NCBI GenBank assembly: GCA_029262635.1
Contig: JAJCZA010000005.1
Span: 535,135-599,134 of the forward strand
DNA from: Vampirovibrionales bacterium
GTDB taxonomy: Bacteria > Cyanobacteriota > Vampirovibrionia > Vampirovibrionales > Vampirovibrionaceae
Direction of reading: 5' to 3'
Length of the DNA stretch: 64,000 nt
This document shows, one piece after another, positions 36,802 to 56,233 of the stretch. How positions within the stretch are numbered: the first letter of the stretch is position 1; each line of letters begins with the position of its first letter. Both the position numbers and the translations under genes were made by a program. The notes under the pieces are model-generated. The model worked only from the letters and a program-made list of their open reading frames with translations, did not search any database and was not told where the DNA came from.

Positions 36802-37488
36802 ATGACGACGGGTCTTTCGGTTGAAGAAAAAACTATATCAGCTCAGGGAAAGGCTTTTCAGCTATTTCAGGAAGCTAAAAAGCAAAAATTGATTCAGCCG
36901 GGAAAGACAGAAAAACAATTGAGTGATGAGGTTTATCAATTAGCCGATGAACTTTTTGGGGTTAAAAAATATTGGCACAAACGGATTGTTCGTTCAGGTT
37001 TGAATACACTTGAAACGTATTCAGGTAATCCGCCCAATTTAATCATTCAAGATGATGACATTGTGTTCTTTGATTTTGGTCCTATTTTTGATTCTTATGA
37101 AGCGGATCTCGGTCGTACGTATGTGCTGGGTCAGGATTCGAATAAATTAAGACTACAGAAAGACTTGGAATGTATTTTTATAGAAGGAAAACAGTTTTAT
37201 AAAGAAAACCCAGAGCTTAGTGGTCATGATTTCTACGGAAAAATTGTTTCTTTATCCGAGGAGCGTGGGTGGCAATATGGAAATTCTCATTGTGGCCATT
37301 TAATTGGTGAATTTTCCCATGAAAGGCGTTGTGGCGAGTTGCCAGAGAATTATATTTGTACGGATAACTTAAAGTCAATGGATACACTGGATCGACATGG
37401 CGAGTTTCGTCACTGGATTCTAGAAATACATTTGGTTGACCCGACCAATCAATGGGGCGGGTTTTATGAGGATTTATTGACACTCTAA
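36802..37488 (+). CDS. short M24-family (pita-bread fold) metallopeptidase-like protein; AT-rich gene
   Basis: D..x11..D (FFDFGPIFDSYEADLGRT), HLIGEFSHE and ILEIH metal-ligand pattern; about 38% GC versus about 50% flanks; SD GAGGTG. Confidence 0.55.
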   Translation: MTTGLSVEEKTISAQGKAFQLFQEAKKQKLIQPGKTEKQLSDEVYQLADELFGVKKYWHKRIVRSGLNTLETYSGNPPNLIIQDDDIVFFDFGPIFDSYEADLGRTYVLGQDSNKLRLQKDLECIFIEGKQFYKENPELSGHDFYGKIVSLSEERGWQYGNSHCGHLIGEFSHERRCGELPENYICTDNLKSMDTLDRHGEFRHWILEIHLVDPTNQWGGFYEDLLTL

Positions 37489-38690
37489 CCTGAAACCGGT
37501 TCCATAATGAGTTCGTCGCTGTCTAATGGTTTTTCGATTTCTTCGATGTCTTTGGCGTGGAGGGCGTTTTTTAGGCTGGTGTCGCCTTGGTAACTTTTAA
37601 TGAGTTCCGCTTCAAAAAAGGTCAGGGCTTCGACTTCGGTTTCGATTCGGGCGATTTTCTCTTCGCCTTTAAAGACGAAAAATTTTCCTTTACCCCCGGC
37701 AATACCAATATCCGCTCGCTCACATTCGCCGGGGCCGTTGACGAAACAACCCATGACGGCCACATGAAGCGGGCTTTTACCGTAGATGCGATCATACTTA
37801 GCCACCATGGCCTCGACTTGGCGGGTCAGGCCGTGAAGATCAATTTCGCACCGCCCGCAGGCCGGGCAACTGACAATATCCGAGCCGGTTTTTCGCAGGC
37901 CGAGGCTTTTCAAAATCTCATGCCCCGCAAAGACCTCTTCGATGGAATCCGCCGTGAGCGAAATACGGATGGTGTCGCCAATGCCTTCGCTGAGCAGAAT
38001 CCCTAGGGCTACGGAACTTTTAATAATACCCCGTTTCAGCGTTCCGGCTTCGGTCACGCCGAGATGGAGTGGGTAAGGTACCTCACTGGCCAGTCGCTGG
38101 TAAGCGGCCACGGCATCCATGGGGTCGCTGGCTTTAACGGAAATTTTCATTTGGTCAAAGTCTTCTGCTTCCAGCAGGCGCACGTTCAATTGGGCGCTTT
38201 CCACCAGTTGGGTCACCAGATTGTCCGGGTACTTTTCTTTGACGCTTTTTTCAACGGAACCACTATTGACACCGATTCGAATGGGGAGGTCCCGTTCTTT
38301 GGCCTTGGCCACCACCGCCCGGGTAAATTCGGCCCGGCCAATATTTCCGGGATTAATGCGCAGGCCGTGGACGCCATTATCCGCCGCTTGTAGGGCGAGA
38401 CGGTAATCAAAATGAATATCGGCAATTACCGGAATAGGCGAGGCGGGGACAATCTGCTTTAGGGCATCGGCAGCTTCTTTATCCGGAACGGCCACCCGGA
38501 TAATCTCGCACCCGGCGTCCGCCAGCCGCTGAATTTGATACACACTGGTTTTCACATCCCGCGTGTCATTCACTAACATGGATTGAACCGCAATGGGCGC
38601 ATCGCCACCGATTTCGACGGGACCCACATGGATTTTTTTAGAGGCACGTCGTTGGTTTTGTTTTTTATTATTGGTTAGGTCAGTAGTCAT
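37485..38690 (-). CDS. ispG: 4-hydroxy-3-methylbut-2-enyl diphosphate synthase IspG
   Basis: GcpE TIM-barrel N-domain and C-terminal Cys motifs (CPACGRC...GCFVNGPGE); 401 aa. Confidence 0.9.
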   Translation of the reverse strand: MTTDLTNNKKQNQRRASKKIHVGPVEIGGDAPIAVQSMLVNDTRDVKTSVYQIQRLADAGCEIIRVAVPDKEAADALKQIVPASPIPVIADIHFDYRLALQAADNGVHGLRINPGNIGRAEFTRAVVAKAKERDLPIRIGVNSGSVEKSVKEKYPDNLVTQLVESAQLNVRLLEAEDFDQMKISVKASDPMDAVAAYQRLASEVPYPLHLGVTEAGTLKRGIIKSSVALGILLSEGIGDTIRISLTADSIEEVFAGHEILKSLGLRKTGSDIVSCPACGRCEIDLHGLTRQVEAMVAKYDRIYGKSPLHVAVMGCFVNGPGECERADIGIAGGKGKFFVFKGEEKIARIETEVEALTFFEAELIKSYQGDTSLKNALHAKDIEEIEKPLDSDELIMEPVSG

Positions 38691-39472: not shown

Positions 39473-41176
39473 CTAGACCATTGGCTCTTTTTCCGGGTAG
39501 TATTCTTTGAGATAGCCGGGGGTGGGGAGGCTTTCTTTGTAGAGGATGTCTCGGGGGACGCCGAGGTTAATGGTGTCCCACGGGAGGATTTCCGATTCCG
39601 GGCGTTCCCGCAGGGCGTACCAATCGAGTTCGGGGAAATCGAGTTCGCCTTCAGCCCTGAGTTCTTTCATGGCGCGATTAATATGACCCAGCGAACCGCC
39701 GTGTTCGTAGAACCGGACAAGAAGCTTGGAGAGTCGTCGATCACCTCGGGACAAAAACGCCTGAAAGTAATCCCACTTGGCGCTGGTGGCCCGAACATCA
39801 CAGGTTTTAGCGAGGCCCTTTTTTAGGCGCTTAAATCGCGCGTCCACGTCTTTATTATCTGGGCGACTCATCCACTGGAAGGGGGTGCCACCTTTGGGCA
39901 CGAAGGAACTGGAGCCCAAAATAATTTCTAAACCCGGCGCCGCCTGCTTTACTTCTTTCATTAGGGCTACGGTTTCGTCAATATCTTCAGGTGTTTCGTC
40001 GGGAAGAGCTACCATGCCGTAAAATTTCAGTGATTTTAGTCCGCCCGCTTTGGCGATTTCAGCGCACTGAATGATTTGTTCATGTTTCAGGTTTTTATTA
40101 ATGCGACGACGAAGTTTTTCCGAACCGGTCTCAATGGCCACCGTGAGCTGGCGCTGATTGCCCCGGACAAACGTTTTAACAATATCCTCGGTGATGGTAT
40201 CCACCCGCAAAGACGAGGCGGAAATATCCAAGTCCGGGTTTTCATCGAGTTTTTTGTGGAGGTGAGCGCAGATATCGTCAAAATTCGGGTGATTGGAAAT
40301 CAGCGCCCCTAAAAGCCCGAGCTTGTTGGTGTGTTGCAGGCCTTGGTCAATGATTTGAATAATACGATCCGCACTGGGTCCACGAGCCGGGAGCATAGAA
40401 TAGCTGGCGAGGCAGAAGCGGCACCGGTGGGCGCACCCTCGCATGACTTCCACCAGAAATTTATTGGCAAAAATAGCCTTGTCCGAAATAATGGGGCTGG
40501 AGGCGACAAAGTTATCCATGTTTTCGATCAGGCGTTTTTGCACAACGGTGGGAATGTCATCGTATTTGGGGGTGATGCTTTTAATGGGGCCGTCCGGGCT
40601 TTCGTATTCAACCTCATACAGTCCGGGAGCGTAAAGACCGGGAACTTCCGCCGCGATGCGTCGAATGAGTTCTTCTCGATCTGTCAGGTGTTCGTATTTT
40701 TTATAGGCTTGGGTTAGTTCGCTCATCATCTCTTCGCCTTCGCCGACGAGGAAAAAATCAAAAAAGTCGGCAAAGGGCTCTGGATTACTCATGGGTACCG
40801 GGCCACCGGCAAAAATTAGGGGATGACTTCGGTTCCGGTCTTTGGCGAAAAACGGGATGTTGTATGTCTCGAATGTTTTAAGAATCGCGATGACATCCAG
40901 CTCAAAGGAAAACGAAAAGCCCATGAGTTCAAACTGGCGAGGGTCGTAATCGGTCAGCGTATCCATATAGACCCGGCTGACATTAACATCCGGATTTTGA
41001 TCCATGTCTTTAAAGAGAATGAGATAGCCCAATGATGACAGGGCAATCTGATAGCTTGCGGGATACATAAATCCGAGATTGACCGCATCGGGGTTGGGCG
41101 GGACAGGATCGTAAAGATAGATCTCTTGTGCCTCGTCCTTGCGGTAGACGGCGTCTTTTCGGGTGGTTTGAGCCAT
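39473..41176 (-). CDS. B12-binding-domain radical SAM protein (class B), function unknown
   Basis: N-terminal cobalamin-binding-like domain, CAHRCRFC CxxxCxxC motif, long C-terminal extension; 567 aa. Confidence 0.8.
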   Translation of the reverse strand: MAQTTRKDAVYRKDEAQEIYLYDPVPPNPDAVNLGFMYPASYQIALSSLGYLILFKDMDQNPDVNVSRVYMDTLTDYDPRQFELMGFSFSFELDVIAILKTFETYNIPFFAKDRNRSHPLIFAGGPVPMSNPEPFADFFDFFLVGEGEEMMSELTQAYKKYEHLTDREELIRRIAAEVPGLYAPGLYEVEYESPDGPIKSITPKYDDIPTVVQKRLIENMDNFVASSPIISDKAIFANKFLVEVMRGCAHRCRFCLASYSMLPARGPSADRIIQIIDQGLQHTNKLGLLGALISNHPNFDDICAHLHKKLDENPDLDISASSLRVDTITEDIVKTFVRGNQRQLTVAIETGSEKLRRRINKNLKHEQIIQCAEIAKAGGLKSLKFYGMVALPDETPEDIDETVALMKEVKQAAPGLEIILGSSSFVPKGGTPFQWMSRPDNKDVDARFKRLKKGLAKTCDVRATSAKWDYFQAFLSRGDRRLSKLLVRFYEHGGSLGHINRAMKELRAEGELDFPELDWYALRERPESEILPWDTINLGVPRDILYKESLPTPGYLKEYYPEKEPMV

Positions 41177-41229
41177 GGGGTTGGGTTACCTAATTACAAT
41201 TTCGTCACATTCGTTTTAATATATGGGCA

Positions 41230-41256
41230 TTCTATTTATTATTTTTCGAAATAGAA
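41230..41256. promoter_or_regulatory. inverted repeat TTCTATTT-N11-AAATAGAA in divergent promoter region between the two radical SAM genes
   Basis: 8-bp perfect arms at 41230-41237 and 41249-41256. Confidence 0.3.
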
Positions 41257-41313
41257 CAGGCTAATTCTAGTGTAGAAGCCACTATAACACCGACGAAAAG
41301 GGAACACAAAACC

Positions 41314-42411
41314 ATGACCACTTTGGCCCCCGAAATTAAAGAAACACTGCCGACGAACCGCTTGGAGCGAAACGAGGCGTTGCGCCTGTTTCAAGAAGCG
41401 GATTTGTTTACCTTGGGCATTATGGCCGAAGAGGTAAAATATCGCTTTCACGGGGCGAATCCAGCATATACGTTTGTGATTGACCGAAATGTGAACTACA
41501 CCAATGTGTGTAATGTGGATTGTCTATTCTGCGCCTTTTATCGTCCGGCAGACCACCCGGAAGCTTATACCCTGACTTTTGAGCAAATTAAAGAGAAGGT
41601 GGAAGAGCTGATGCTTGCGGGTGGAACCCAGCTATTGCTTCAAGGCGGCGTGAACCCGGATTTGCCGTTTGAGTATTACACGGATCTGGTGCGAAATATT
41701 CGAAATGAATTCCCGGAGCTGACCATTCATGCTTTTTCGCCGACAGAAGTCTCTTTTATGGCAGAGCAGACGGGGCAATCTGTCAAATGGATTTTAGAGC
41801 AGTTGATTGATGCCGGTATGTCGTCCTTGCCGGGCGCCGGCGGTGAAATTCTCCACGATGATATCCGGCGCAAGGTTAGTCATAAAAAAGTGAAGACTGA
41901 AGACTGGATGGGTGTGATGGATACGGCGCACAAGCTTGGCATGAAAACCTCATCGACGATGATGTTTGGCATGATGGAAGAGGATTGGCACATTATCGAT
42001 CATCTGTTCCGCATCCGAGAACAGCAGGATAAAACCGGCGGATTCCTGTCCTTTATTCCGTGGACTTTTCAACGAGCCAACACCAAGTTAGAACGCTTGC
42101 CCAATCAGGCCGCTACCGGACTAGAATATTTGCGAGTCAGTGCCATGGCCCGGATTATTCTGGATAACGTCCCTAATATCGGTGCATCGTGGATTACCCA
42201 AGGCGTTAAGCTCGGTCAAACCGCTCTGACGATGGGCGCTAATGATATGGGCGGACTGCTCCTCGAAGAAAACGTGGTGACCCAAGCCGGAATCAACCCC
42301 ACGAGAAAAAGCGTCGAAGAAATGGTTAAAGCCATCCACGACACCGGCCACGACGCCGCCCAACGCGATACGGCGTATAATATCTTGAAGGTCTTTCCGG
42401 TGGGAGTGTAA
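41314..42411 (+). CDS. radical SAM enzyme of the MqnC/MqnE (futalosine-pathway) / CofH-like family
   Basis: CNVDCLFCAF CxxxCxxC motif and family-typical length/pattern; cannot discriminate MqnC versus MqnE. Confidence 0.7.
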   Translation: MTTLAPEIKETLPTNRLERNEALRLFQEADLFTLGIMAEEVKYRFHGANPAYTFVIDRNVNYTNVCNVDCLFCAFYRPADHPEAYTLTFEQIKEKVEELMLAGGTQLLLQGGVNPDLPFEYYTDLVRNIRNEFPELTIHAFSPTEVSFMAEQTGQSVKWILEQLIDAGMSSLPGAGGEILHDDIRRKVSHKKVKTEDWMGVMDTAHKLGMKTSSTMMFGMMEEDWHIIDHLFRIREQQDKTGGFLSFIPWTFQRANTKLERLPNQAATGLEYLRVSAMARIILDNVPNIGASWITQGVKLGQTALTMGANDMGGLLLEENVVTQAGINPTRKSVEEMVKAIHDTGHDAAQRDTAYNILKVFPVGV

Positions 42412-42414
42412 ACA

Positions 42415-43143
42415 TTATTGATTTTTCTTGCTTCTCAATTCTTCTAATAGTCGTTCAGACAAATCAAGAATAGTATTCCAGTCGGCTAATATTTGTGCGT
42501 GAAATTGAATCATGGGTGGATCGGTTTCAGAGTCAGCTACAATAAAGGGCTTAAAATTTTCTGACTGAGTTTGGTTAATGTTGCTTTTAAAGTCTGCCCT
42601 TTCATTGGTTCTCTTCTTATAATCTTCCGCCTTCTTTGGGGTTAAACAAAAGGGTGGAATATAAGGAGGCATTCTATGTGCGAGAGAGTGGCGGAATTGC
42701 TCTAAATTTTCTTTCCACTTTGTAAGCCGCTCAGAATTTAGATACTCTCTGAATTCCTCAGATAACTTCCTTTGAATTTTTTTATTAAATAGACTTACCT
42801 CATGCTTTCTTTTAGACTCAAATTGGGTTTCTGTAACCCATATCCAAGCAAGGTTATCAATGCAGCCATAAGTATTGAAAGAAAATGCTTGCAGGTTAAT
42901 AGTAATATCAGTGAGAGTCTTATCAGACGGTCCTTCTGCTTGATTTAGAGGGCAAAGCATATAAGTATTTTGAATACACCTTTTTAAAGTAGACATTCTA
43001 CGAAGTAACCCGTTATATACGTAATTGGGGTATTCCTGAGTGTCGAAAAAAAGAGTATATTTAGATACTAGGTCTTGATGGGTTTCTTCTACAGAGTTGT
43101 AGCCTGTTGTAAGCTTCTTGATGTTTTCTTGAGAATAAAACAT
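42415..43143 (-). CDS. hypothetical protein with HEPN-like RxxxxAH motif (Abi_2/AbiD-like candidate); AT-rich single-gene insertion
   Basis: about 33% GC; FRHSLAHR resembles the Rx4-6H HEPN motif; otherwise no match. Confidence 0.4.
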   Translation of the reverse strand: MFYSQENIKKLTTGYNSVEETHQDLVSKYTLFFDTQEYPNYVYNGLLRRMSTLKRCIQNTYMLCPLNQAEGPSDKTLTDITINLQAFSFNTYGCIDNLAWIWVTETQFESKRKHEVSLFNKKIQRKLSEEFREYLNSERLTKWKENLEQFRHSLAHRMPPYIPPFCLTPKKAEDYKKRTNERADFKSNINQTQSENFKPFIVADSETDPPMIQFHAQILADWNTILDLSERLLEELRSKKNQ

Positions 43144-43186
43144 TTTCTCTTGTTTCTTACTTATTTAAACACTTGCTCTATAGTAA

Positions 43187-43233
43187 CAAAAAAGCTGTTC
43201 TCAAAGTCTTCCAACTTTAGGAACAGCTTTTTA
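43187..43233. terminator. bidirectional rho-independent terminator downstream of the YceI-like gene
   Basis: stem agctgttc/gaacagct with A-run before and T-run after. Confidence 0.6.
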
Positions 43234-43248
43234 AATAATGGATTCGGG

Positions 43249-43908
43249 TTACTTTAGTGATTCGGGGTCATCGGTGGCGAAGGCGTCAATGGTTACATTC
43301 ACGGTTTCAGATAATTTGACGAACAGGGCTTCCGGTCGGGGAATGCCGTGTTCGGTCAGAGTGACGGGAAACGTTCCTCGAATACGAATCATATTACCGG
43401 ATTTGAATCGTTTATGGGTGGTGAGCGACTCTTCAAAATAAGTAACCTTCATAGAAGCCGATTTCGGCACGCTCACACCATGAATGGTAAAGGGGCCGGT
43501 GGCGTTGATGGTGACCACATCACCGGTTTTAAACGGAGCTTTGGCCTTGGTTTTAATGCGAGTGGCCTTAAATGTCGCTTTTGGGAATTTTGCGGTATGT
43601 AAAAAGTTATCCCGCATGTGCTGGTTTCGCAGTGGGATACCCGTATCAATGCTGGCTAAATCCACATTAAAGGTTACTTCAAACGGGTGCTTTTTATCAA
43701 ACGTGAATGAATCATCGTAGCAAACTTTGCCTTTGATTTTATTGGTGACCCCTTCAATTAGTTCTACCGGAGCATCGGACGAGAAGCGGACCACATCCCG
43801 GTTTGAATGGTCGTCAATATAAAAACATTTGGCTTCGGCACCTGAGGGCAAAAAGCTAACCATCCCTAAAAGAGCGGCGAGTACGACTAAAAATTTAATT
43901 TGTTTCAT
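43249..43908 (-). CDS. YceI-like periplasmic protein (signal peptide)
   Basis: Sec signal MKQIKFLVVLAALLGMVSFLPSGAEA; YceI-like beta-barrel pattern; SD AAGGA 25 bp after the upstream gene. Confidence 0.7.
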   Translation of the reverse strand: MKQIKFLVVLAALLGMVSFLPSGAEAKCFYIDDHSNRDVVRFSSDAPVELIEGVTNKIKGKVCYDDSFTFDKKHPFEVTFNVDLASIDTGIPLRNQHMRDNFLHTAKFPKATFKATRIKTKAKAPFKTGDVVTINATGPFTIHGVSVPKSASMKVTYFEESLTTHKRFKSGNMIRIRGTFPVTLTEHGIPRPEALFVKLSETVNVTIDAFATDDPESLK

Positions 43909-43933
43909 TGATGTTGATTCCTTTATTCTGATT

Positions 43934-44830
43934 CTAAATGACTGTTACGGAGCCGGATAAAACTCCCAAAGAATAGCACTGGTTAAGAAGTTTAAGCCCT
44001 TCTTCAAATAGCTTTTCTTTAGGAATCGCTTCCAATTCTGGCATGGTTTTTTGTAGCGTTTCCAAGGTTTTCAAATAAGATGATGATTTTTCTGACGTCG
44101 ACATAAACGCTGAGGTCAGCGGATTTAATCGGAAAAACCGAGCCTTTAATGTTTCGGGATCCCGATAAATTAAGATATCACTGGGCGCCGGTTTTACCTT
44201 TGAAAAAATAGTGAGTTGCTCATCCTCTGTCATATCCATTTGCCTTAAAATTTCGGGCACCGGATAGATAAATGACTTTAAGTGCCGAGCTGAATTCCAG
44301 ACGGGTTTCCACTGGCCTAACTCATTAGCAGAGTCAGGAACACCTGGCTCGAATGACTGAGGGAAGACGATGTCAGGCGCATTCTGAACGGTTACTTCAA
44401 TGCCTTCGTACCATGCTAAGTCAGCAAGAAAAGGAAATTTATCTCCTACTTCATTCAAGTTATGACGACAAGTAACAGCAGGGTTAGACGCCATGGTTTC
44501 TAAAAACTCAGGGAAAGCTTCCATGGAGCGATAAAGCTGAAATGAGGTATTGGGATAGATTCGCCGGTAAACTTCGGCCAGATGAACCCATTGAGCATTG
44601 CTAAAAAATCGAGCCGTGTAGGGGAAGATATTGTTCATTGTCGAAAAAATACCGCCTCGCAGTAGTTCTTCGTACAAATACAAGCCTTCTCTTGGAATAC
44701 CAGCTAAATGCTGCCCTTGAGGCGTTTGAGTAAATGCGGTCCACGAGGCTTCATCATTCAGAACGTTATGGCCGTCCATGGTTAGTAAGGCGGTGCCCAA
44801 TTGTTGTTGAAGTTCTTTAACGCTTGCCAT
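43934..44830 (-). CDS. DUF2063-family protein (MbnC/BufC-like partner of DUF692 enzymes)
   Basis: N-terminal region fits the DUF2063 pattern (..YRRIYPNTSFQLYRSMEAFPEFL..); start overlaps the DUF692 stop (ATGA). Confidence 0.6.
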   Translation of the reverse strand: MASVKELQQQLGTALLTMDGHNVLNDEASWTAFTQTPQGQHLAGIPREGLYLYEELLRGGIFSTMNNIFPYTARFFSNAQWVHLAEVYRRIYPNTSFQLYRSMEAFPEFLETMASNPAVTCRHNLNEVGDKFPFLADLAWYEGIEVTVQNAPDIVFPQSFEPGVPDSANELGQWKPVWNSARHLKSFIYPVPEILRQMDMTEDEQLTIFSKVKPAPSDILIYRDPETLKARFFRLNPLTSAFMSTSEKSSSYLKTLETLQKTMPELEAIPKEKLFEEGLKLLNQCYSLGVLSGSVTVI

Positions 44831-45723
44831 TATCCTGCCAGCTCCTTTCGCTTTCTAGGAGCCGTTTTTCTTATGACGCCATAATGCTTTTCCCAAAGGG
44901 CTTTAATTCGTTCAATTTCGGGTCTAAGTTCGCTGAAAGGTGGGATATTAAGATCTCGCTCCAGCATCACTCCGCTGGGCTGACATTGTTTTAAGACATA
45001 ATCCAGCAGCTCCCACACCGCCTCTTTAACCGGTGCACCATGGGTATCCACCAAGCCTTCGGGATACTCTGTGTGGCCAGCCATATGAATTTGAACCACT
45101 CGCTCTAAAGGCAACGCATCAAAATAGGCTTTGACATCCCAATGGTGATTCGTGGCGTTCACAAACACATTGTTTACATCCAGCAACAGGCCGCAGTCAG
45201 CTTGTTCTAAAATACTAGCCAGATAGACTTCATCGCTCATCTCATTGTCGGGGTAATTCACATAAAATGAAGGGTTTTCAATCAAGACCGGAATTTGAAA
45301 GGTGTCTTGTAAGTATTTGATTCGCTCGGCCACATGGTTTACCGATGCTTGATGACGAGGCATGGGGATCAAATCGTTAAAATACAAACTGTTAATCCCG
45401 CTAAAGGTCAGGTGGTCGCTAAACCAAGCTGGTTTAACGATGTCGAAAAGTTCTTTAAGCTGTTGAATATAAAGGGGATCCCACGGGTCGGTACTGCCGA
45501 TAGAAAGGCTCACGCCGTGAGAGACAAGAGGGTAGACTGCCATGGCTTTTTCCAGACGTTGACGAGCCAATCCGCCTTTACCCATATAATTTTCAGGGGT
45601 GATTTCCACCCAGTCTAAAATATCGGTGGCTTCCAGTGTCTCCTGCAGGAGGGAATCACGAAGACCCAAGCCGACACCAAGTATCGGCGTTCCTTGGAAC
45701 CCGGCTTGATGTCTCTGTGTCAT
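44830..45723 (-). CDS. DUF692-family (MbnB/BufB-like, xylose-isomerase-like TIM barrel) peptide-modifying enzyme candidate
   Basis: UPF0276 signatures incl. IENPSFY; start placed at second ATG 45723 with SD GGAGG 8 nt upstream (ORF track 45738). Confidence 0.75.
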   Translation of the reverse strand: MTQRHQAGFQGTPILGVGLGLRDSLLQETLEATDILDWVEITPENYMGKGGLARQRLEKAMAVYPLVSHGVSLSIGSTDPWDPLYIQQLKELFDIVKPAWFSDHLTFSGINSLYFNDLIPMPRHQASVNHVAERIKYLQDTFQIPVLIENPSFYVNYPDNEMSDEVYLASILEQADCGLLLDVNNVFVNATNHHWDVKAYFDALPLERVVQIHMAGHTEYPEGLVDTHGAPVKEAVWELLDYVLKQCQPSGVMLERDLNIPPFSELRPEIERIKALWEKHYGVIRKTAPRKRKELAG

Positions 45724-45801
45724 TTGATTCGCCTCCATTGCAGAAAACTCTGGATTATTTGTTTGTTATTAGTTTAGAGTTAAAAGCTATTAGTTACTTA
45801 C

Positions 45802-45837
45802 GAAAAAAGCCTAATAATTAACACCAGCTGTGCTGGT
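45802..45837 (-). terminator. weak hairpin (possible attenuator) between the precursor gene and the modification genes
   Basis: stem accagc/gctggt overlapping the precursor stop codon, U-tract 14 nt downstream on the transcript. Confidence 0.25.
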
Positions 45838-46124
45838 TATTTGTCGGAACCGCAGGTGCCGGCACCGCATTTATCTCCGCCGCCTTTATCGCCGTGGTCT
45901 TTATCTTTACCGCATTTATCAGAACCGCATTTATGCTCGCCTTTGTCTTTGCCACATTTATCGGAACCACATTTGTCGCCTTCAGCGATGAGGGTGCCGT
46001 TTCCGGTAAATTCGGTCATACCAAAAAGGCCATCGTTAGCTTGAGCTTGTTGATCAACAGCCGCAACACTAGCAACAACACCAAGGGCAAGGGCAACAGC
46101 CGATAATTTATTTTTATAGTTCAT
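45837..46124 (-). CDS. secreted 6-Cys low-complexity peptide (RiPP/bufferin-like precursor candidate)
   Basis: Sec signal with AQA cleavage site; mature part GDKCGSDKCGKDKGEHKCGSDKCGKDKDHGDKGGGDKCGAGTCGSDK with all six Cys in x-C-G context; SD AAGGAG upstream. Confidence 0.7.
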   Translation of the reverse strand: MNYKNKLSAVALALGVVASVAAVDQQAQANDGLFGMTEFTGNGTLIAEGDKCGSDKCGKDKGEHKCGSDKCGKDKDHGDKGGGDKCGAGTCGSDK

Positions 46125-46145
46125 TGAGGTTAAACTCCTTACTTA

Positions 46146-46159
46146 TTAATTCGAATTAA
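46146..46159. promoter_or_regulatory. perfect 14-bp palindrome TTAATTCGAATTAA just upstream of the precursor gene's RBS (candidate operator)
   Basis: self-complementary; partly duplicated (ATTAATTCG x2); a second 16-bp A/T palindrome TCTTTTTTAAAAAAGA lies at 46192-46207. Confidence 0.35.
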
Positions 46160-46339
46160 TTCGTTTTTTACCAATTATCCAGTTTAAATATCTTTTTTAA
46201 AAAAGAAGATACTCTAGTGTAGACGATACACCCCTCAAATGTTCCAAAGTTCACTCAGGGAGTTGATTACCGTTCAGTAACCAATAGAAACCCACCGGCT
46301 TTTCAGCTTTACATTTCCTGACATATAACCAAGTTACCT

Positions 46340-49300
46340 TTAAGTAACCGGAGCCTCTCGAGGCATTTCGCTCACCGCCCCATGGCACCGCTCACAAATG
46401 TCAGGATGATCAGCGAAAGTCCCAACCGACTCCCGATAATTCCAACAACGCTCACATTTTGAGTAACTAGAAACGCTACATTTTATTGAATATTGCTCAC
46501 CCACTAAACTATTATTTCCATAATGACCAAAATATCCTGACAAATCTAAGTCCTCTTCGAAATTCAGGTTAACTTCTGAACAAAGAAAAAGCATTTCTAA
46601 ATCTGTCTTATTCATATCTATTCTATTGATTGGTTCTAATCCATTCTGAACAACCGCACCAATAGTTGCAACTATTTCTGTAAGTTGCTCAATCTTTTTA
46701 TCAGAAGCAGACGTTAGATTATAGGATATTTCTTTAAATCTTTCCATCGAGCGATTTACATCATATTTCAAAGCTAAAATAGCTTCAAATTGTTCTCGTT
46801 CATCATATTTATAATATTTTTGGTTAAGCTCAGGCCAAGGTGCCATCGTAATACTTACGGGAGGCATATCAAACCCATAATTTGGTTTTTGCTCCTCTTG
46901 AAGATGTGACCAGATGTCTTCGGCCAAGTGAGGGGCGACGGGGACGAGCATGGGGAGCATGGTTGTGAATACTTCGTAGAGGACGGTTTGCATGGCTCGG
47001 CGACGAGGGGCGTTTTCAGGATCGCAGTAGAGGACGTCTTTGGCGACATCAAAATAGAGAGATGACAATTCAGTCACACAAAAGTTCTGGAGGACTTGAT
47101 AGTAGTGATGGAATTGGTAATGATCAAACGCTTCAGTTAATTTGCTCACCACTTCTTGCATGCGGTGCAGGGTGTATTTATCCAGGTCTGAAAGATTCTC
47201 ATACGGTTCCGTATGAGAATCGGGATCAAACCCGGCTAAATTGCCGAGCATAAAGCGCATGGTGTTTCTTACTTTTTTGTAGACTTCCACCAACTGTTTG
47301 ATAATCTCGTCGCCAATACGCACATCCACCGAATAATCCACACTAGCGACCCACAAACGAAGCACGTCGGCGCCGTATTGATTCATGATTTTATTGGGGT
47401 CAATCACGTTGCCCAGGGATTTACTCATTTTGCGCCCGTTGCCATCCAATACAAAGCCATGGGTCAAAACGCTTTTAAACGGTGCTTTCTGATGGAGCAT
47501 CACCGAGGTGAGCAACGATGACTGGAACCAGCCCCGGTGCTGGTCAGAACCTTCCAGATATAGCTCTACGGGTATTTCACCCAATTCGTCTTTTCGGGCT
47601 TCCACCACGGCGGTGTGGGTAATACCACTATCAAACCAGACATCCATGATGTCGGTTTCTTTGGTAAATTCTTTACTTCCACAGGCGCAAGTCGTGTCAT
47701 CGCTTAATAGCTCTGCGGCAGATTTAGCCCACCATGCATCAGAAGATTCTTTGCAGAATAAGTCATATAAATCTTCCGTGGTTTTTTCGTTGATTAGAGG
47801 TTTATCGCAGGCTTTGCAATAGAAAACCGGAATGGGAACGCCCCACACTCGTTGACGACTTATACACCAATCGCCTCGACCTTCCACCATGCTAGCAATC
47901 CGAGCTTCGCCTCGTTCCGGAATCCACTTGGCTTGCTTAATTTCGCCGAGAGCTTCGTTTCGAATTTTATCAATGCTAATAAACCACTGTTCCGTGGCCC
48001 GATAAATCACCGGTTGGTGACAACGCCAACAATGGGGATAACTGTGATCAATCTTGCGATGTCCGAGCAGGGCACCTTTTTCCTTGAGGATCTCAATGAC
48101 GATTTCGTTGCCCTTGCTGTAATGTTGACCGATTAGCCGAGGTTCTTGCGCTTTGTCTGTAAACACGCCCTTAGCATCCACCGGCGACACAATGCCAATG
48201 GGATTGTTTTTTAAGGGGCCATTATCATACTGCTGGCAAATCACATAATCTTCCATCCCGTGGCCGGGCGCCGTATGTACGACCCCGGTACCTGCTTCAA
48301 GAGTTACATGGCGGCCCGTTAAAATAGGAACTACCCGATCATTTATAAACGGATGATGTGCATTGAGAAATTCTAAATCCTTCCCTTTAATCTTTGCCAA
48401 CGTGGGAAATGTTGATTCATTCAAGGGCTTGATCATTGACATCATAGCAGCCTGAATATTAAGTAGTTTCATTCCCTTATTTGGAGCCTCATTTGACGCT
48501 GTAACCTTTCCAGAGGCACCTTCCAAGGTGGGTTCCAATTGTTTGCCGATTTTAGCAAGCTCTTTTACCAAACATTCAATAACCTGTTCCTTAAGTTCCG
48601 AAGCAACAAGATACTTTTGCCCTGATATTTTTTCTTCAAAAACTTCATACTCATATTCGGGATGCACCGATAATGCTAAGTTGGCCGGAATGGTCCAGGG
48701 GGTGGTGGTCCAGATGACCACGGACGCATCTTTCAGCATCTCCTGACCGGGTTTGAGCGAGCTGTTATCAATGGCAAACTTCACATAAATGCTATCGCTT
48801 GTATGGTTATCGTATTCGACTTCGGCATCGGCTAGGGCGGTTTCGCAGTGGGAACACCAGTAGACGGGTTTTAGGCCTTTGTAGACGTAATCTTTTTTGT
48901 GCATTTCGTAGAAGGCTTTAATTTGAGTGGCTTCAAATTTAGGATCCGTGGTGATGTAGGGGTGTTCCCAATCGCCCCAGACGCCGAGGCGTTTAAAATT
49001 GGTTTCTTGTCCTTTGAGGTTTTTCGCCCCGAAGTCTCGACATTTTTGGCGCAGTTCCACGTCAGAAATGGCCTTTCGTCCGCCTTTAATACTTTTGACC
49101 ACCGCATTTTCAATGGGCAGGCCATGGCCATCATATCCGGGAACGTAAGGCGCATAATGCCCTCGTTGATATTGATAGCGGGTGACAATATCCTTGAGAA
49201 TTTTATTTAAAGCCGTTCCAATGTGGATTTTATCCGAACTCAGGTACGGCGGGCCATCATGGAGAATAAATTTTTCGGCACCACTCGCTTTTCGTTGTTC

Positions 49301-53527: not shown

Positions 53528-54070
53528 TTAATTTGGCTGCCAAAGTCCCTGTTGAGCCATTCGTGCTTGTGTTTCAATTCTCTCGAAACGTTTCTGAAAC
53601 CGTTTATTGGGATGAATAAACAGGGTGGTTACCAACCCTTGTTCTAGTAGTTGTTCATTAATGGATTGTGGTGCATCGGGTTGTTCGTAGATAAATGCCA
53701 GAGTCCGTCCAAAGGGGTCCTGTTTTTCCTGATCGAACATTAAATAGACCTTTTTTTTGAGGAGTTTATTTTGCACAAACGTTCTGGCCTCAACCGAAAA
53801 AGGTTCGTCTCGACCTTCCATGTCGGGATTATTGCGCCGCCTTCTTGAATAACGGGTTTCCGGTGCGTCGATGCCTAAAAACCGGATGTATTCCCGAGGT
53901 TTTTCAATTTGGGCATTGCCATTCAAATCACAGGCGATGGTATCCCCATCAAACACCTTTAATACATGGCAGGGTATCCGTTCACTTTCAGTCGATACTG
54001 GCGGTTTTTGAGTATAACCGGAGTCGCAGGCGGTAAAAGTAATTATAGCGGCTAATACGAAGAGTCCCAT
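53528..54070 (-). CDS. secreted thermonuclease (SNase-like) lipoprotein
   Basis: lipobox LAAIITFTAC; SNase motifs (FDGDT, RFLGIDAPE, GRTLAFIY); start at ATG 54070 to avoid overlap with hbd. Confidence 0.75.
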   Translation of the reverse strand: MGLFVLAAIITFTACDSGYTQKPPVSTESERIPCHVLKVFDGDTIACDLNGNAQIEKPREYIRFLGIDAPETRYSRRRRNNPDMEGRDEPFSVEARTFVQNKLLKKKVYLMFDQEKQDPFGRTLAFIYEQPDAPQSINEQLLEQGLVTTLFIHPNKRFQKRFERIETQARMAQQGLWQPN

Positions 54071-54098
54071 TAAAGTCGGGCTCGGCCTAAAAGAAAGG

Positions 54099-54995
54099 CT
54101 AATCGTAAACAAAGAAACCGCGTCCCGATTTTCGTCCCAGATAACCGGCGTCCACATATTGTTTTAGCAACGGACATGGGCGGAACCGGGCGTCGTTAAA
54201 TCCTTCGTAAAGCACGTTAATCACTGACAGGCATGTATCCAGCCCAATAAAATCAGCCAGTGTTAACGGACCCATGGGGTGGTTCATGCCGAGCTTCATC
54301 ACCGTATCAATATCTTCTGGCGAGCCGATACCCTCGTATACGGCGAACATGGCTTCATTTAATAGAGGCATTAAAATACGGTTCGAGATGAATCCTGGAA
54401 AATCCCGAGCCACGACCGTGGTTTTGCCCATGTTTTGCGACAAGGCGTTAATGGTTTGATAGGTCGTGTCCGAAGTTTGGGCTCCACGGATAATCTCCAC
54501 CAGTTTCATTAGTGGTACCGGATTCATGAAATGCATGCCAATCACTTGAGAGGGCCGTTTTGTGGCCGCCGCTAAACGGGTAATAGAAATACTGGAGGTG
54601 TTACTGGCCAGAATGGCCTCTGGCTTAAGTAAGGCATCCAGCTTTTTAAACACGTCTATTTTCACGGCCTCGCTCTCCACAATGGCCTCGACTACTACGT
54701 CTGCGTTATTTAGGGCATTAAAATCCTGCTCAAAATGAATATGAGCTAAGGCTTTTTCTTTATCGGAAGCCGTGATTTTTTCTTTTTCTACAAACTTGGC
54801 TAAACTTTTCTCAATGGTCTTTTCCGCTCGGCCTAAAGCGTCGGCGGACATATCATGGATGATTACATTTAGACCGGCAGATGCCGCCGCTACCTGGGCA
54901 ATGCCATTTCCCATCTGACCACCGCCAATAACACCAATGGTTTTAATGTCTTGTACCGAAAGCACGTTGGTTTCCGATAAAACTGCGTTGCTCAT
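54099..54995 (-). CDS. hbd: 3-hydroxybutyryl-CoA dehydrogenase
   Basis: GVIGGGQMGNGIA, HFMNPVPLMKLVEI. Confidence 0.9.
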   Translation of the reverse strand: MSNAVLSETNVLSVQDIKTIGVIGGGQMGNGIAQVAAASAGLNVIIHDMSADALGRAEKTIEKSLAKFVEKEKITASDKEKALAHIHFEQDFNALNNADVVVEAIVESEAVKIDVFKKLDALLKPEAILASNTSSISITRLAAATKRPSQVIGMHFMNPVPLMKLVEIIRGAQTSDTTYQTINALSQNMGKTTVVARDFPGFISNRILMPLLNEAMFAVYEGIGSPEDIDTVMKLGMNHPMGPLTLADFIGLDTCLSVINVLYEGFNDARFRPCPLLKQYVDAGYLGRKSGRGFFVYD

Positions 54996-55051
54996 CTATT
55001 CAGCCCTCTTTTAATTATTGCCTAATTTTCTGCGAGTCCTGTTTATAAGGT

Positions 55052-56233
55052 TTAAACCATTTCAACCACCACCGCTACGGCCTCACCACCGCCAATACAC
55101 AGGGTAACCACCCCCCGTTTCTTGTTTTGGTCCTTTAAGGCATGAAGCAGGGTTACCAGCAATCGATTGCCCGACGCACCAATGGGGTGACCCAAGGCAA
55201 CGGCGCCCCCTCGGACATTCACTTTCTCAAGCGGGATATCTAAATCTGCCATGGCGGCCATGGTGACCACAGAAAATGCTTCGTTAATCTCAAAGAGGTC
55301 AATATCGGAGACCGTCAAGCTCAGCTTCGCCAATATTTTTTTGATGGCACCCACCGGGGCGGTGGTAAACCATTCGGGGTCTTGGCTGAACGTGGCCGAA
55401 CCCAGGATTTTCGCCATGGGCTTTAACCCATGAGCTTCAATGGCTTTTCCTGAAGCAACGAGAACGGTTGAAGCTCCATCGTTAATGGTTGAGGCGTTCC
55501 CGGCTGTAATAGTACCTTCCTTGGCAAACGCTGCACGTAACTTACCCAGTTTATCAGGGTCGCCTTTGAACGGCTCTTCATCAGTATCCACAATAATCGG
55601 GTCTTTCCGTCGTTGCGGCACTTCCACTGGCACAATCTCCGCTTTAAACGCACCAGACTCGATGGCTTTACGGGCACGCTCATAACTGGTTTTAGCAAAA
55701 TCGTCCTGAGCTTCTCGAGTGAAGTGGTATTTTTCAGCGCACATCTCACCCGCGTTTCCCATATGGAAATCGTGATAGGGATCCCATAGGCCGTCCAGAA
55801 TCATGCTGTCTTTAATTTCTCGGTGCCCCATTCGGTAGCCGTTGCGTGCATCCATCAAGTAATGAGGACTTTGGCTCATGGACTCCATACCGCCCGCAAT
55901 CACCAAGTCCGCCTCGCCAGCTTTGATCTCTGCGGCGGCCATCATCACGGTTTTAAGGCCCGAACCGCATACTTTATTCACGGTTACCGCACCGGTGGAT
56001 GTGGGGATGCCTGCCTTAATCATGGCTTGTCGTGCAGGAGCTTGTCCCTGGCCTGCGGGTAGTACGCAACCCATTAATACTTCATCAACCTCTCCCGGCG
56101 AAACACCGGCGCGTTCTAAAACCGCTTTAATAACAACGCTACCCAAGACCGGAGCAGGCACACTGGACAACGACCCTAGAAAGCTACCCATTGCTGTTCG
56201 GGCACCACTGATAATGTATACATCGTTACTCAA
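55052..56233 (-). CDS. acetyl-CoA C-acetyltransferase (biosynthetic thiolase)
   Basis: NKVCGSGL, GGMESMS, C-terminal CIGGGEAVA. Confidence 0.9.
   Translation of the reverse strand: MSNDVYIISGARTAMGSFLGSLSSVPAPVLGSVVIKAVLERAGVSPGEVDEVLMGCVLPAGQGQAPARQAMIKAGIPTSTGAVTVNKVCGSGLKTVMMAAAEIKAGEADLVIAGGMESMSQSPHYLMDARNGYRMGHREIKDSMILDGLWDPYHDFHMGNAGEMCAEKYHFTREAQDDFAKTSYERARKAIESGAFKAEIVPVEVPQRRKDPIIVDTDEEPFKGDPDKLGKLRAAFAKEGTITAGNASTINDGASTVLVASGKAIEAHGLKPMAKILGSATFSQDPEWFTTAPVGAIKKILAKLSLTVSDIDLFEINEAFSVVTMAAMADLDIPLEKVNVRGGAVALGHPIGASGNRLLVTLLHALKDQNKKRGVVTLCIGGGEAVAVVVEMV

Follow-up and report, generated by a model that had tools for sequence, protein, structure and literature searches.

A probable captophorin-type peptide operon ending in a YceI-family gene in a Vampirovibrionales genome

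We analyzed a 64,000-nucleotide stretch of a Vampirovibrionales bacterium genome (GenBank assembly GCA_029262635.1, contig JAJCZA010000005.1, positions 535,135 to 599,134 of the forward strand; hereafter the window), and found that the region 43249-46124 encodes, on the minus strand, four co-directional open reading frames (ORFs): a small Cys-rich peptide, an MNIO (DUF692) enzyme, a DUF2063-family partner (PME1), and a YceI-family protein. We consider it probable, at roughly 70%, that this locus is a captophorin-type operon for a ribosomally made peptide that is modified after translation (RiPP), nearest to the oxazolin system HvfABC, that makes a modified Cys-rich peptide for copper and carries a YceI accessory. 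The locus contains the sequence features of the captophorin class (PMC13097082), namely an MNIO, a DUF2063 partner, a Lys-Cys 5-mer precursor, and the iron ligands and catalytic Asp of the enzyme. MNIO-PME1 clusters are among the commonest bacterial loci for peptide natural products, and their products (bufferins, oxazolin, and fontiphorin) are coming to be seen as buffers of periplasmic copper and as virulence factors. Published surveys focus on Pseudomonadota; the locus described here shows the same logic in the Vampirovibrionales/Melainabacteria, the non-photosynthetic sister group of cyanobacteria. The core finding joins a well-populated, recently characterized class and leaves the overall picture of how such systems work unchanged; new here are the Melainabacteria host, a YceI accessory that is conserved, and changes in both the repeat motif and the enzyme determinants. 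The four genes are:

45837-46124, minus strand: precursor gene, 95 residues, first gene of the operon
44830-45723, minus strand: MNIO (DUF692) enzyme, 297 residues (302 if read from 45738), Pfam PF05114
43934-44830, minus strand: DUF2063/HvfC-type partner (PME1), 298 residues, Pfam DUF2063
43249-43908, minus strand: YceI-family periplasmic lipocalin, 219 residues, signal peptide ending in GAEA/K, fourth gene of the cassette

The precursor divides into three parts:

46038-46124, minus strand: residues 1-29, Sec-type signal peptide (MNYKNK, hydrophobic core, AQA/N)
45975-46034, minus strand: residues 31-50, conserved N-region DGLFGMTEFTGNGTLIAEGD, putative docking site for the partner
45837-45974, minus strand: residues 51-95 and stop codon, six-Cys core (GDKCG SDKCG ... 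EHKCG SDKCG ... GDKCG AGTCG)

Read by eye, the signal peptide has a basic n-region, a 17-residue hydrophobic core, and an AQA/N cleavage motif, and the motif QQA(Q/N)A is kept across homologues. In the N-region, L33, F34, E38, and A47 vary little or not at all among 30 subfamily members, and the segment can be aligned to the NPFxMxELxxGYMVA motif found in EGKCG-type oxazolins. HvfC binds HvfA, and changes to the HvfA N-region have an effect (PMC11252979); by analogy with that work, the N-region of the window peptide would be the docking site for the partner protein. The six Cys residues (52, 57, 66, 71, 86, and 91), which are the predicted modification sites, form three CGxxxCG pairs, with a K-C-G context at five positions and T-C-G at the sixth. 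The sequence KCGSDKCGKDK is duplicated at residues 51-61 and 65-75, and the two 33-nucleotide copies differ at five positions, all synonymous. Between the gene and its orthologue in a related locus (L004), 24 codon differences are synonymous and 5 are non-synonymous, which argues that the ORF is translated and under purifying selection and is not a chance ORF.

We searched the precursor against Pfam and NCBIfam, and its sole family matches were to HvfA/oxazolin models, both below cut-off. NCBIfam HvfA (NF050188) scored 31.9 bits (cut-off 95) in an end-to-end alignment of residues 5-93 to profile positions 5-95 of 96, and KCGExKCG_twice (NF050137) scored 18.7 bits (cut-off 19.5); Pfam gave no match at E ≤ 0.1, including none to DUF2282, the Buf1 domain. 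A subfamily profile, built on the window peptide plus four of its close homologues and run against 1.84 billion representative proteins, returned 374 cluster representatives at E ≤ 1e-3, nearly all with 80-180 residues, a signal peptide, the pattern (L/P)F-x-(M/L)-x-E-(V/L) ... A, and five-residue (K/H)CG repeats. When the 30-member non-EGKCG branch was compared with 20 EGKCG precursors in hhalign, the match had 98.9% probability (E 1e-17, 86 columns) and spanned signal peptide, docking motif, and repeats; the low-complexity repeats push this score up somewhat, and what counts is the match in the non-repetitive N-region. Judged by its sequence, the precursor belongs to the HvfA/oxazolin superfamily as a divergent member (the "Lys-Cys 5-mer" captophorins, or the "Buf_EGKCG/oxazolin" cluster of PMC12452194).

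This placement departs from the sequence-only reading of the window, whose wording had suggested a six-Cys bufferin precursor and which had not named HvfABC. We rejected a Buf_6/12Cys (Buf2) or DUF2282 (Buf1) precursor on the Lys-Cys rather than Cys-Lys context and the lack of DUF2282, with Buf2 judged by its Cys-Lys signature. The same reading had proposed an uncharacterized variant of a periplasmic metal-binding RiPP system; the class holds, but "uncharacterized" does not, since KCG-repeat precursors with Sec signals have already been catalogued, in numbers from ~2,000 (PMC12452194) to >6,900 (PMC13097082).

The second protein matches the full MNIO family profile, PF05114 (MbnB_TglH_ChrH/DUF692), at 320 bits (cut-off 25) over 261 of 263 positions. 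Its top-scoring NCBIfam model is BufB (NF050167; 302.9 bits, 7 short of the cut-off of 310), followed by HvfB (NF003818; 274.9 bits, cut-off 360), ApyH (113 bits), ChrH (68 bits), and MbnB (TIGR04159; 37.2 bits, cut-off 325). The nearest solved structure, 3BWW (E 2e-52), is of a Histophilus somni protein 72% identical to HvfB. Translation most likely begins at the second ATG (45723), to give 297 residues: a GGAGG lies 8 nucleotides upstream of this codon, within the first codons of the longest ORF (start 45738), and public gene calls use the same start, which accounts for an exact look-up of the 302-residue form returning no match. All nine ligands of the three iron sites of MbnB (His54, His90, Glu133, Asp163, Asn166, His192, Asp208, His210, and Glu239; PMC9060507) are kept, as H74, H109, E154, D187, N190, H218, D231, H233, and E260 in the 302-residue numbering. 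They include the three site-3 residues that HvfB needs and whose substitution inactivates that enzyme (bioRxiv 10.64898/2026.07.17.739211). Also kept is D262, which follows the ERD/ER motif and maps by that motif to the proposed catalytic base of FonB, D249 (PMC13097082). Every characterized MNIO-PME1 pair converts Cys to 5-thiooxazoles, and the resulting products bind Cu (PMC13097082); by analogy, we predict that the window MNIO is a Cys-to-5-thiooxazole oxidase.

The third protein matches DUF2063 (PF09836) at 37 bits (cut-off 27.2), and its C-terminal NGO1945_C/HvfC_C domain scores 25.5 bits, just below the cut-off of 27; in the captophorin class, PME1 joins DUF2063 to a C-terminal domain of RRE type (PMC13097082). 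Its best NCBIfam match is HvfC (NF050145; 73.5 bits, cut-off 142), and it matches the structure 3DEE weakly.

The fourth protein matches YceI (PF04264) at 77 bits (cut-off 23.7). An AlphaFold model drawing on 40 homologues had a mean predicted local distance difference test (pLDDT) score of 90 and a predicted template-modeling (pTM) score of 0.81. In a Foldseek search of the PDB with this model, the top 21 matches were all of the YceI family (E 3.6e-12 to 7.7e-06, target-normalized TM 0.66-0.79), and included PA0423, E. coli YceI, TT1927b, HP1286, BcnA/BcnB, and the X158 domain. A "KHPF" insertion marks the Melainabacteria-specific branch to which the window protein belongs, and some members of the branch have an ES.TT.KRFKSG loop as well. 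C28 and C63 were considered as a metal site or essential disulfide and rejected, being conserved only in the four closest relatives.

The four genes look like a single operon, to judge from the following non-coding features together with the ribosome-binding sites and gene spacing:

46174-46201, minus strand: sigma-70-like promoter candidate, TTTAAA and GATAAT with a 16-nucleotide spacer, 9 of 12 positions in a consensus scan (a consensus match only)
46202-46339, minus strand: conserved non-coding stretch from the ileS stop codon to the operon promoter, with the AT-rich palindrome TCTTCTTTTTTAAAAAAGA abutting the -35 hexamer
45823-45837, minus strand: small stem-loop of 6 pairs immediately 3' of the precursor stop codon, -8.3 kcal/mol, weak taken alone
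43183-43232, minus strand: intrinsic terminator closing the operon, a hairpin of 19 pairs flanked by an A-run (5') and a U-run (3')

An AAGGAG ribosome-binding site lies 5' of the precursor gene. After the hairpin at the precursor stop come 113 nucleotides, the GGAGG, and the second MNIO ATG. The partner ATG overlaps the MNIO stop by 1 nucleotide (ATAATG at 44830), and the gap from partner to YceI is 25 nucleotides. There is no terminator between these last two genes in the window, and the strong one stands directly 3' of YceI (folding free energy -21.3 kcal/mol, z = -5.98; none of 200 shuffles folds equally well). The sequence-only reading had described much of this arrangement, and it fared well here: we found its four minus-strand ORFs, the overlap and the 25-bp gap, the closing terminator, and the 95-residue Sec-signal peptide with six Cys in K/T-C-G context and an internal duplication all as it had set them out, and its DUF692, DUF2063, and YceI assignments held up in the hidden Markov model check that it proposed.

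Upstream of the operon, the GATAAT hexamer of the candidate promoter is unchanged across the window and its relatives L002 and L004. The stretch at 46202-46339 is 76-84% identical to its counterparts in these two loci, with 70-80% for the flanking coding DNA, and carries a GTGTA-N5-TACAC dyad in addition to the AT-rich palindrome, which may be an ileS terminator, an UP element, or an operator. Rfam gave no match in 45700-46400 at E ≤ 1, and thus no known riboswitch or leader ahead of the operon. We do not claim an RNA element in the spacer between ileS and the precursor gene, as the hairpins of the consensus fold are almost without covariation (term +0.34; three close sequences).

L002 and L004 also have the stem-loop after the precursor gene, in the same place and with two compensatory pair changes. 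Three other loci (L003, L021, and L022) have hairpins of unrelated sequence at this position, that of L021 folding at -37 kcal/mol and followed by a U-run. RiPP operons commonly keep precursor mRNA above enzyme mRNA, and the recurring hairpins fit this expectation. We regard the stem-loop as a candidate partial terminator or mRNA-stabilizing hairpin that would raise the ratio of precursor to enzyme.

To place the cassette among its relatives, we used neighborhoods built from precursor homologues; an MNIO search of contigs gave one relative only. The named relatives all belong to Vampirovibrionales, Vampirovibrio sp., or Candidatus Melainabacteria. Gene orders are as follows, with L numbers denoting loci:

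Window, L001, L002, L022, L025: precursor-MNIO-partner-YceI, flanked by ileS and in several also by SecG
L004 (duplicate record L006): precursor-MNIO-partner-YceI, contig ending within the YceI gene
L021: precursor-MNIO-partner-YceI, between obg and a cellulose synthase gene
L023: precursor-MNIO-partner-YceI, between Omp85 and UbiA genes
L005: partner-YceI fragment on a 1.4-kb metagenome contig, YceI 51% identical
L026: precursor-MNIO-partner, no YceI
L027: DoxX-precursor-MNIO-partner (the classical order), no YceI, in a more distant branch

The four-gene order is therefore present in at least eight loci, in three flanking contexts (ileS/SecG, obg/cellulose synthase, and Omp85/UbiA), in line with the recurrence that the earlier reading had suggested looking for in other genomes. 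MNIO identity to the window is 69% in L001 and 86% in L002, and the gap between partner and YceI is 16-66 nucleotides across nine loci. Because the order is kept while the surroundings change, YceI is most simply part of the unit. The precursor gene stands immediately upstream of the MNIO gene in 10 of the 10 MNIO-containing loci examined. The presence of YceI where DoxX would be expected, also an observation of the sequence-only reading, was borne out: no DoxX was found among the small ORFs of the window, and a tblastn search with the L027 DoxX gave a best E of 0.19 in the 64-kb window and no match in the YceI-type loci. YceI and DoxX never occur together in the loci examined, but so few loci cannot prove substitution. 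None of the YceI relatives at 31-39% identity adjoins an MNIO gene.

The relatives also vary in precursor number and placement. The window has one precursor-like ORF only. L023 (4619-4912) and L026 (4204-4755) have second, tandem precursor genes, and the genomes of L001 and L002 carry orphan precursors far from any MNIO gene (L024, 5001-5267, and L028, 606-929), the L024 copy adjoining a gene for a Crp-family regulator. One L001 relative of the peptide, P0003, has a single EGKCG. In L003 (5220-8011), a metagenome contig from the European Nucleotide Archive, precursor and MNIO genes follow genes for rhodanese, an S-adenosylmethionine (SAM)-methyltransferase, and ArsC/glutaredoxin, and the contig ends within the MNIO gene. 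A trio of SNase, 3-hydroxyacyl-CoA dehydrogenase, and thiolase genes at 53528-56233 of the window also adjoins the YceI-less cassette in L026 (780-3453), which places the cassette at varying distances from the same housekeeping block.

Among known systems, the window operon is most like HvfABC/oxazolin. HvfA of nontypeable Haemophilus influenzae has 95 residues, a 24-residue Sec signal that is experimentally cleaved, an N-region, and three copies of the repeat AEGKCGEGKCG, in which HvfB/HvfC modify the six Cys (PMC11252979); the oxazolin structure has been revised to 5-thiooxazoles (PMC13097082; bioRxiv 10.64898/2026.07.17.739211). The window shares the precursor length of 95 residues, the Sec signal, the N-region, three two-Cys repeats, the CxxxxC spacing, and the K-C-G context, a comparison that rests on the published description (PMC11252979) and on EGKCG-type homologues rather than on a direct alignment with HvfA of the nontypeable strain. 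It also shares the gene order of precursor, MNIO, and DUF2063 partner, and the HvfA, HvfB, and HvfC models are among the top matches. Unlike HvfA, the window peptide has the repeats SDKCG, GDKCG, EHKCG, and AGTCG, with EGKCG absent, and no Cys38/Cys43 disulfide pair in the N-region; its docking motif is GLFGMTEF, whereas that of oxazolins is NPFxMxEL. Unlike HvfABCX, the operon has no DoxX (HvfX) and has a YceI gene at its 3' end, and the host belongs to the Melainabacteria rather than to Pseudomonadota.

The captophorins fontiphorin (FonABC) and gonophorin (PMC13097082) likewise combine an MNIO, a PME1, and a Cys-rich precursor with five-residue Lys-Cys-Gly repeats, and share the metal ligands and mapped catalytic Asp; unlike FonB, the window MNIO has Asp28 and Leu263 for Arg16 and Phe250, by motif mapping only. 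As companion genes of the captophorin class, DoxX, DUF2282, and regulators have been reported, but not YceI (PMC13097082). The bufferins Buf1 and Buf2, in which thiooxazoles buffer periplasmic copper (PMC11626156; PMC12452194), have in common with the window a Sec signal on the precursor and an MNIO with a DUF2063 partner, and the window MNIO scores slightly higher with BufB than with HvfB. The window operon differs from them in lacking DoxX, sigma/anti-sigma, and NrsF genes, and its precursor belongs to neither bufferin family. Methanobactin (MbnABC) binds copper and, like the window system, has an MNIO with the same set of iron ligands and a Cys-bearing ribosomal peptide; it differs in the MbnA leader peptide, oxazolone/thioamide chemistry, copper acquisition, and transport genes, whereas the window precursor carries a Sec signal and does not match MbnA. 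All curated thresholds for HvfA, HvfB, HvfC, and BufB were failed, and EGKCG and DoxX are absent; on these sequence grounds, the window system should be filed as a sister lineage, neither an HvfABC orthologue nor a bufferin.

Gene content, family placement, ligand conservation, and synteny were established directly here; the chemistry, metal, localization, and YceI role that follow we infer by analogy with the characterized systems. The 95-residue precursor would be made with its Sec signal peptide and, before export, the DUF2063/HvfC-type partner would bind the conserved LF-x-M-x-E-F/V...IAEG segment and offer the multi-iron MNIO the (K/T)CG repeats at the C-terminus. This enzyme, in a mixed-valent diiron state and with O2, would carry out a four-electron oxidation of each of the six Cys to 5-thiooxazole (-4 Da each) in the cytoplasm. 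Sec export would follow, and then cleavage by signal peptidase I after AQA29. The window encodes LptC, which implies an outer membrane and hence a periplasm, and there the 66-residue Lys/Asp/Gly-rich product would sequester Cu(I), at ~1 Cu per CGxxxCG heterocycle pair by analogy with oxazolin, and guard against copper or oxidative stress. It may also be that copper is bound more stochastically and with aggregation, the behavior seen for fontiphorin. The hairpin after the precursor gene probably holds precursor mRNA above enzyme mRNA.

What the YceI protein might do can be approached through its relatives. YceI proteins are periplasmic or secreted lipocalins whose crystals usually hold ubiquinone-8, octaprenyl phosphate, or octaprenylphenol; their genes typically adjoin cytochrome b561, and a Burkholderia pair of this kind counters lipid-derived peroxyl radicals (PMC9113575). 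Redox proteins that support copper-dependent lytic polysaccharide monooxygenases can likewise contain a YceI-like domain (PMC8981238). The window protein resembles characterized YceI lipocalins (E. coli YceI, PA0423, BcnA/BcnB; PMC9113575) in its Pfam domain, eight-stranded barrel, and signal peptide, and differs from BcnA/BcnB, which are found with the cytochrome b561 LcoA, in sitting in a RiPP operon without b561. DoxX, the usual fourth gene, has been discussed for oxidative or thiol stress (PMC11252979; PMC12452194; PMC13097082). By analogy, we infer that YceI is a lineage-specific accessory in the DoxX slot that would handle a hydrophobic isoprenoid quinone or lipid-peroxidation product under the envelope stress that the peptide also meets, and take no part in peptide maturation; this is the weakest part of our reading.

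The distant YceI genes at 31-39% identity have a recurring neighbor of their own. They lie directly downstream of a gene for a protein of ~350-400 residues (L008, 1499-2686; L010, 532-1716; L012, 363-1547; L015, 5737-6960; L016, 902-2125; L019, 5555-6697), which has a signal peptide, an N-terminal CxxCH heme motif (LPRY.A.Y.Q.C.LCH.NPTGGG), and a C-terminal aromatic residue, is 35-59% identical between lineages, and has no Pfam or NCBIfam match. We take it to resemble Cyc2-type fused cytochrome-porins, and its association with YceI would be another pairing of YceI with a redox protein.

Several observations weigh against a copper-binding, oxazolin-like system with a YceI accessory. EGKCG, the Buf_EGKCG signature (PMC12452194), is found at none of the six sites of the precursor. 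Every NCBIfam equivalog score (HvfA, HvfB, BufB, and HvfC) lies below its cut-off, so that functional equivalence is extrapolated. Two FonB determinants differ in the MNIO, with Asp28 (GLGLRDS) for Arg16 and Leu263 (ERDL) for Phe250, positions mapped only by motif (GLGYRRD and ERDF in 3BWW); site selectivity, and possibly the product, could therefore differ. Near the operon there are no genes for a copper-responsive regulator, a copper pump, or any other metal function, and nothing in the window ties it to copper specifically. The gene context of L003 hints at another stress, in that some family members may be tied to arsenic or sulfur stress. As to the accessory, cytochrome b561 (YceJ/LcoA) is not adjacent, the neighbors of YceI being the PME1 gene and a 242-residue soluble ORF, and the L026 cassette shows that the YceI link is not universal. 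Some of these departures go together: FonB Arg16 contacts Glu1 of EGKCG (PMC13097082), and loss of this Glu-binding Arg fits the loss of Glu at position 1 of the SDKCG and GDKCG repeats. The non-EGKCG repeats and altered mapped positions thus lend themselves to testing the recognition rules proposed for FonB.

Such departures leave room for an MNIO that does modify the peptide, with a chemistry (oxazolone/thioamide or another Cys rearrangement) or a metal (As, Hg, Au, or Zn) that is not oxazolin-like. MNIOs catalyze many different reactions, and some bufferin fusions are tied to mercury (PMC12452194); the sub-threshold equivalog scores, the changed residues at FonB-mapped specificity positions, and the L003 precursor near ArsC and rhodanese genes point the same way. 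We nevertheless find this quite improbable, as the BufB and HvfB models give the MNIO far higher scores (303 and 275 bits) than do ApyH (113), ChrH (68), or MbnB (37), every characterized MNIO-PME1 pair yields 5-thiooxazoles (PMC13097082), and the Cys-Gly dyad preferred by FonB, with its Lys-Cys context, is kept at five of the six sites. That the small ORF instead encodes an unmodified, metallothionein-like Cys-rich periplasmic protein, or no substrate at all, and that the MNIO pair acts elsewhere, we hold to be very improbable indeed. Unmodified HvfA also binds 2-3 Cu(I), weakly (PMC11252979), and orphan precursor genes do lie far from MNIO in related genomes; against this stand the invariable position of the precursor directly ahead of MNIO, the conservation of its N-region in the manner of a recognition sequence, and the dedication of PME1-MNIO pairs to RiPP synthesis (PMC13097082).

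The role of YceI is a separate matter, since the core system could be as described and YceI a mere neighbor, a general envelope-stress lipocalin with no functional tie to it. The absence of YceI from L026, which shares the SNase/3-hydroxyacyl-CoA dehydrogenase/thiolase neighborhood of the window, would suit such a reading, as would the 31-39% identical relatives that are never beside MNIO and the action of YceI proteins in other contexts with cytochrome b561 (PMC9113575). The literature and supplements that we searched assign YceI no role in MNIO clusters, and mention it beside one only in a supplementary figure legend, for a Legionella bufferin cluster with a cytochrome b gene. Set against these points are the adjacency of YceI in at least eight loci and three unrelated flanking contexts, down to 45-51% YceI identity, the shared strand and short gaps of the partner and YceI genes, and, in the window, a strong terminator right after YceI with none ahead of it. 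Together with the absence of DoxX from all YceI-type loci, and of YceI from the single DoxX locus, they make a chance neighbor unlikely.

A stronger claim than that of a YceI accessory is that YceI functionally replaces DoxX in Melainabacteria captophorin operons, both proteins linking peptide or copper damage to membrane isoprenoid quinones; YceI would then be a soluble carrier of quinone or lipid-peroxyl species, and DoxX a membrane quinone-linked protein. We advance this only tentatively and think it doubtful. Of the features of the operon, only the consistent swap of DoxX for YceI is without a description in the literature searched, and it could help to explain the role of the accessory gene. 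If replacement is true, the either/or pattern of YceI and DoxX would be the first testable handle on DoxX in tens of thousands of MNIO-PME1 clusters.

The remaining neighbors of the operon in the window are housekeeping genes: ileS, an MqnC/CofH-like radical SAM gene, GcpE, MgsA, and Maf. The CofH/MqnC-type radical SAM gene, a second radical SAM gene, and GcpE/IspG lie by the operon at 39473-42411 and 37485-38690. The CofH/MqnC-type gene probably belongs to the futalosine route to menaquinone, which would make menaquinone the likely isoprenoid quinone for the YceI protein here. The 242-residue ORF just past the operon terminator (42415-43143, minus strand) lies in a patch of low GC content (0.36, compared with ~0.45-0.49). 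It has no Pfam, NCBIfam, or PHROG match, and a marginal PADLOC match to E1-E2 (E 9e-4). We rejected it as part of the system, as it lies past the terminator, is missing from related loci, and has no convincing family match; it may be a recent insertion. Across the whole window, the sole Rfam match at gathering thresholds is a tRNA gene at 2645-2718 on the plus strand (70.8 bits).

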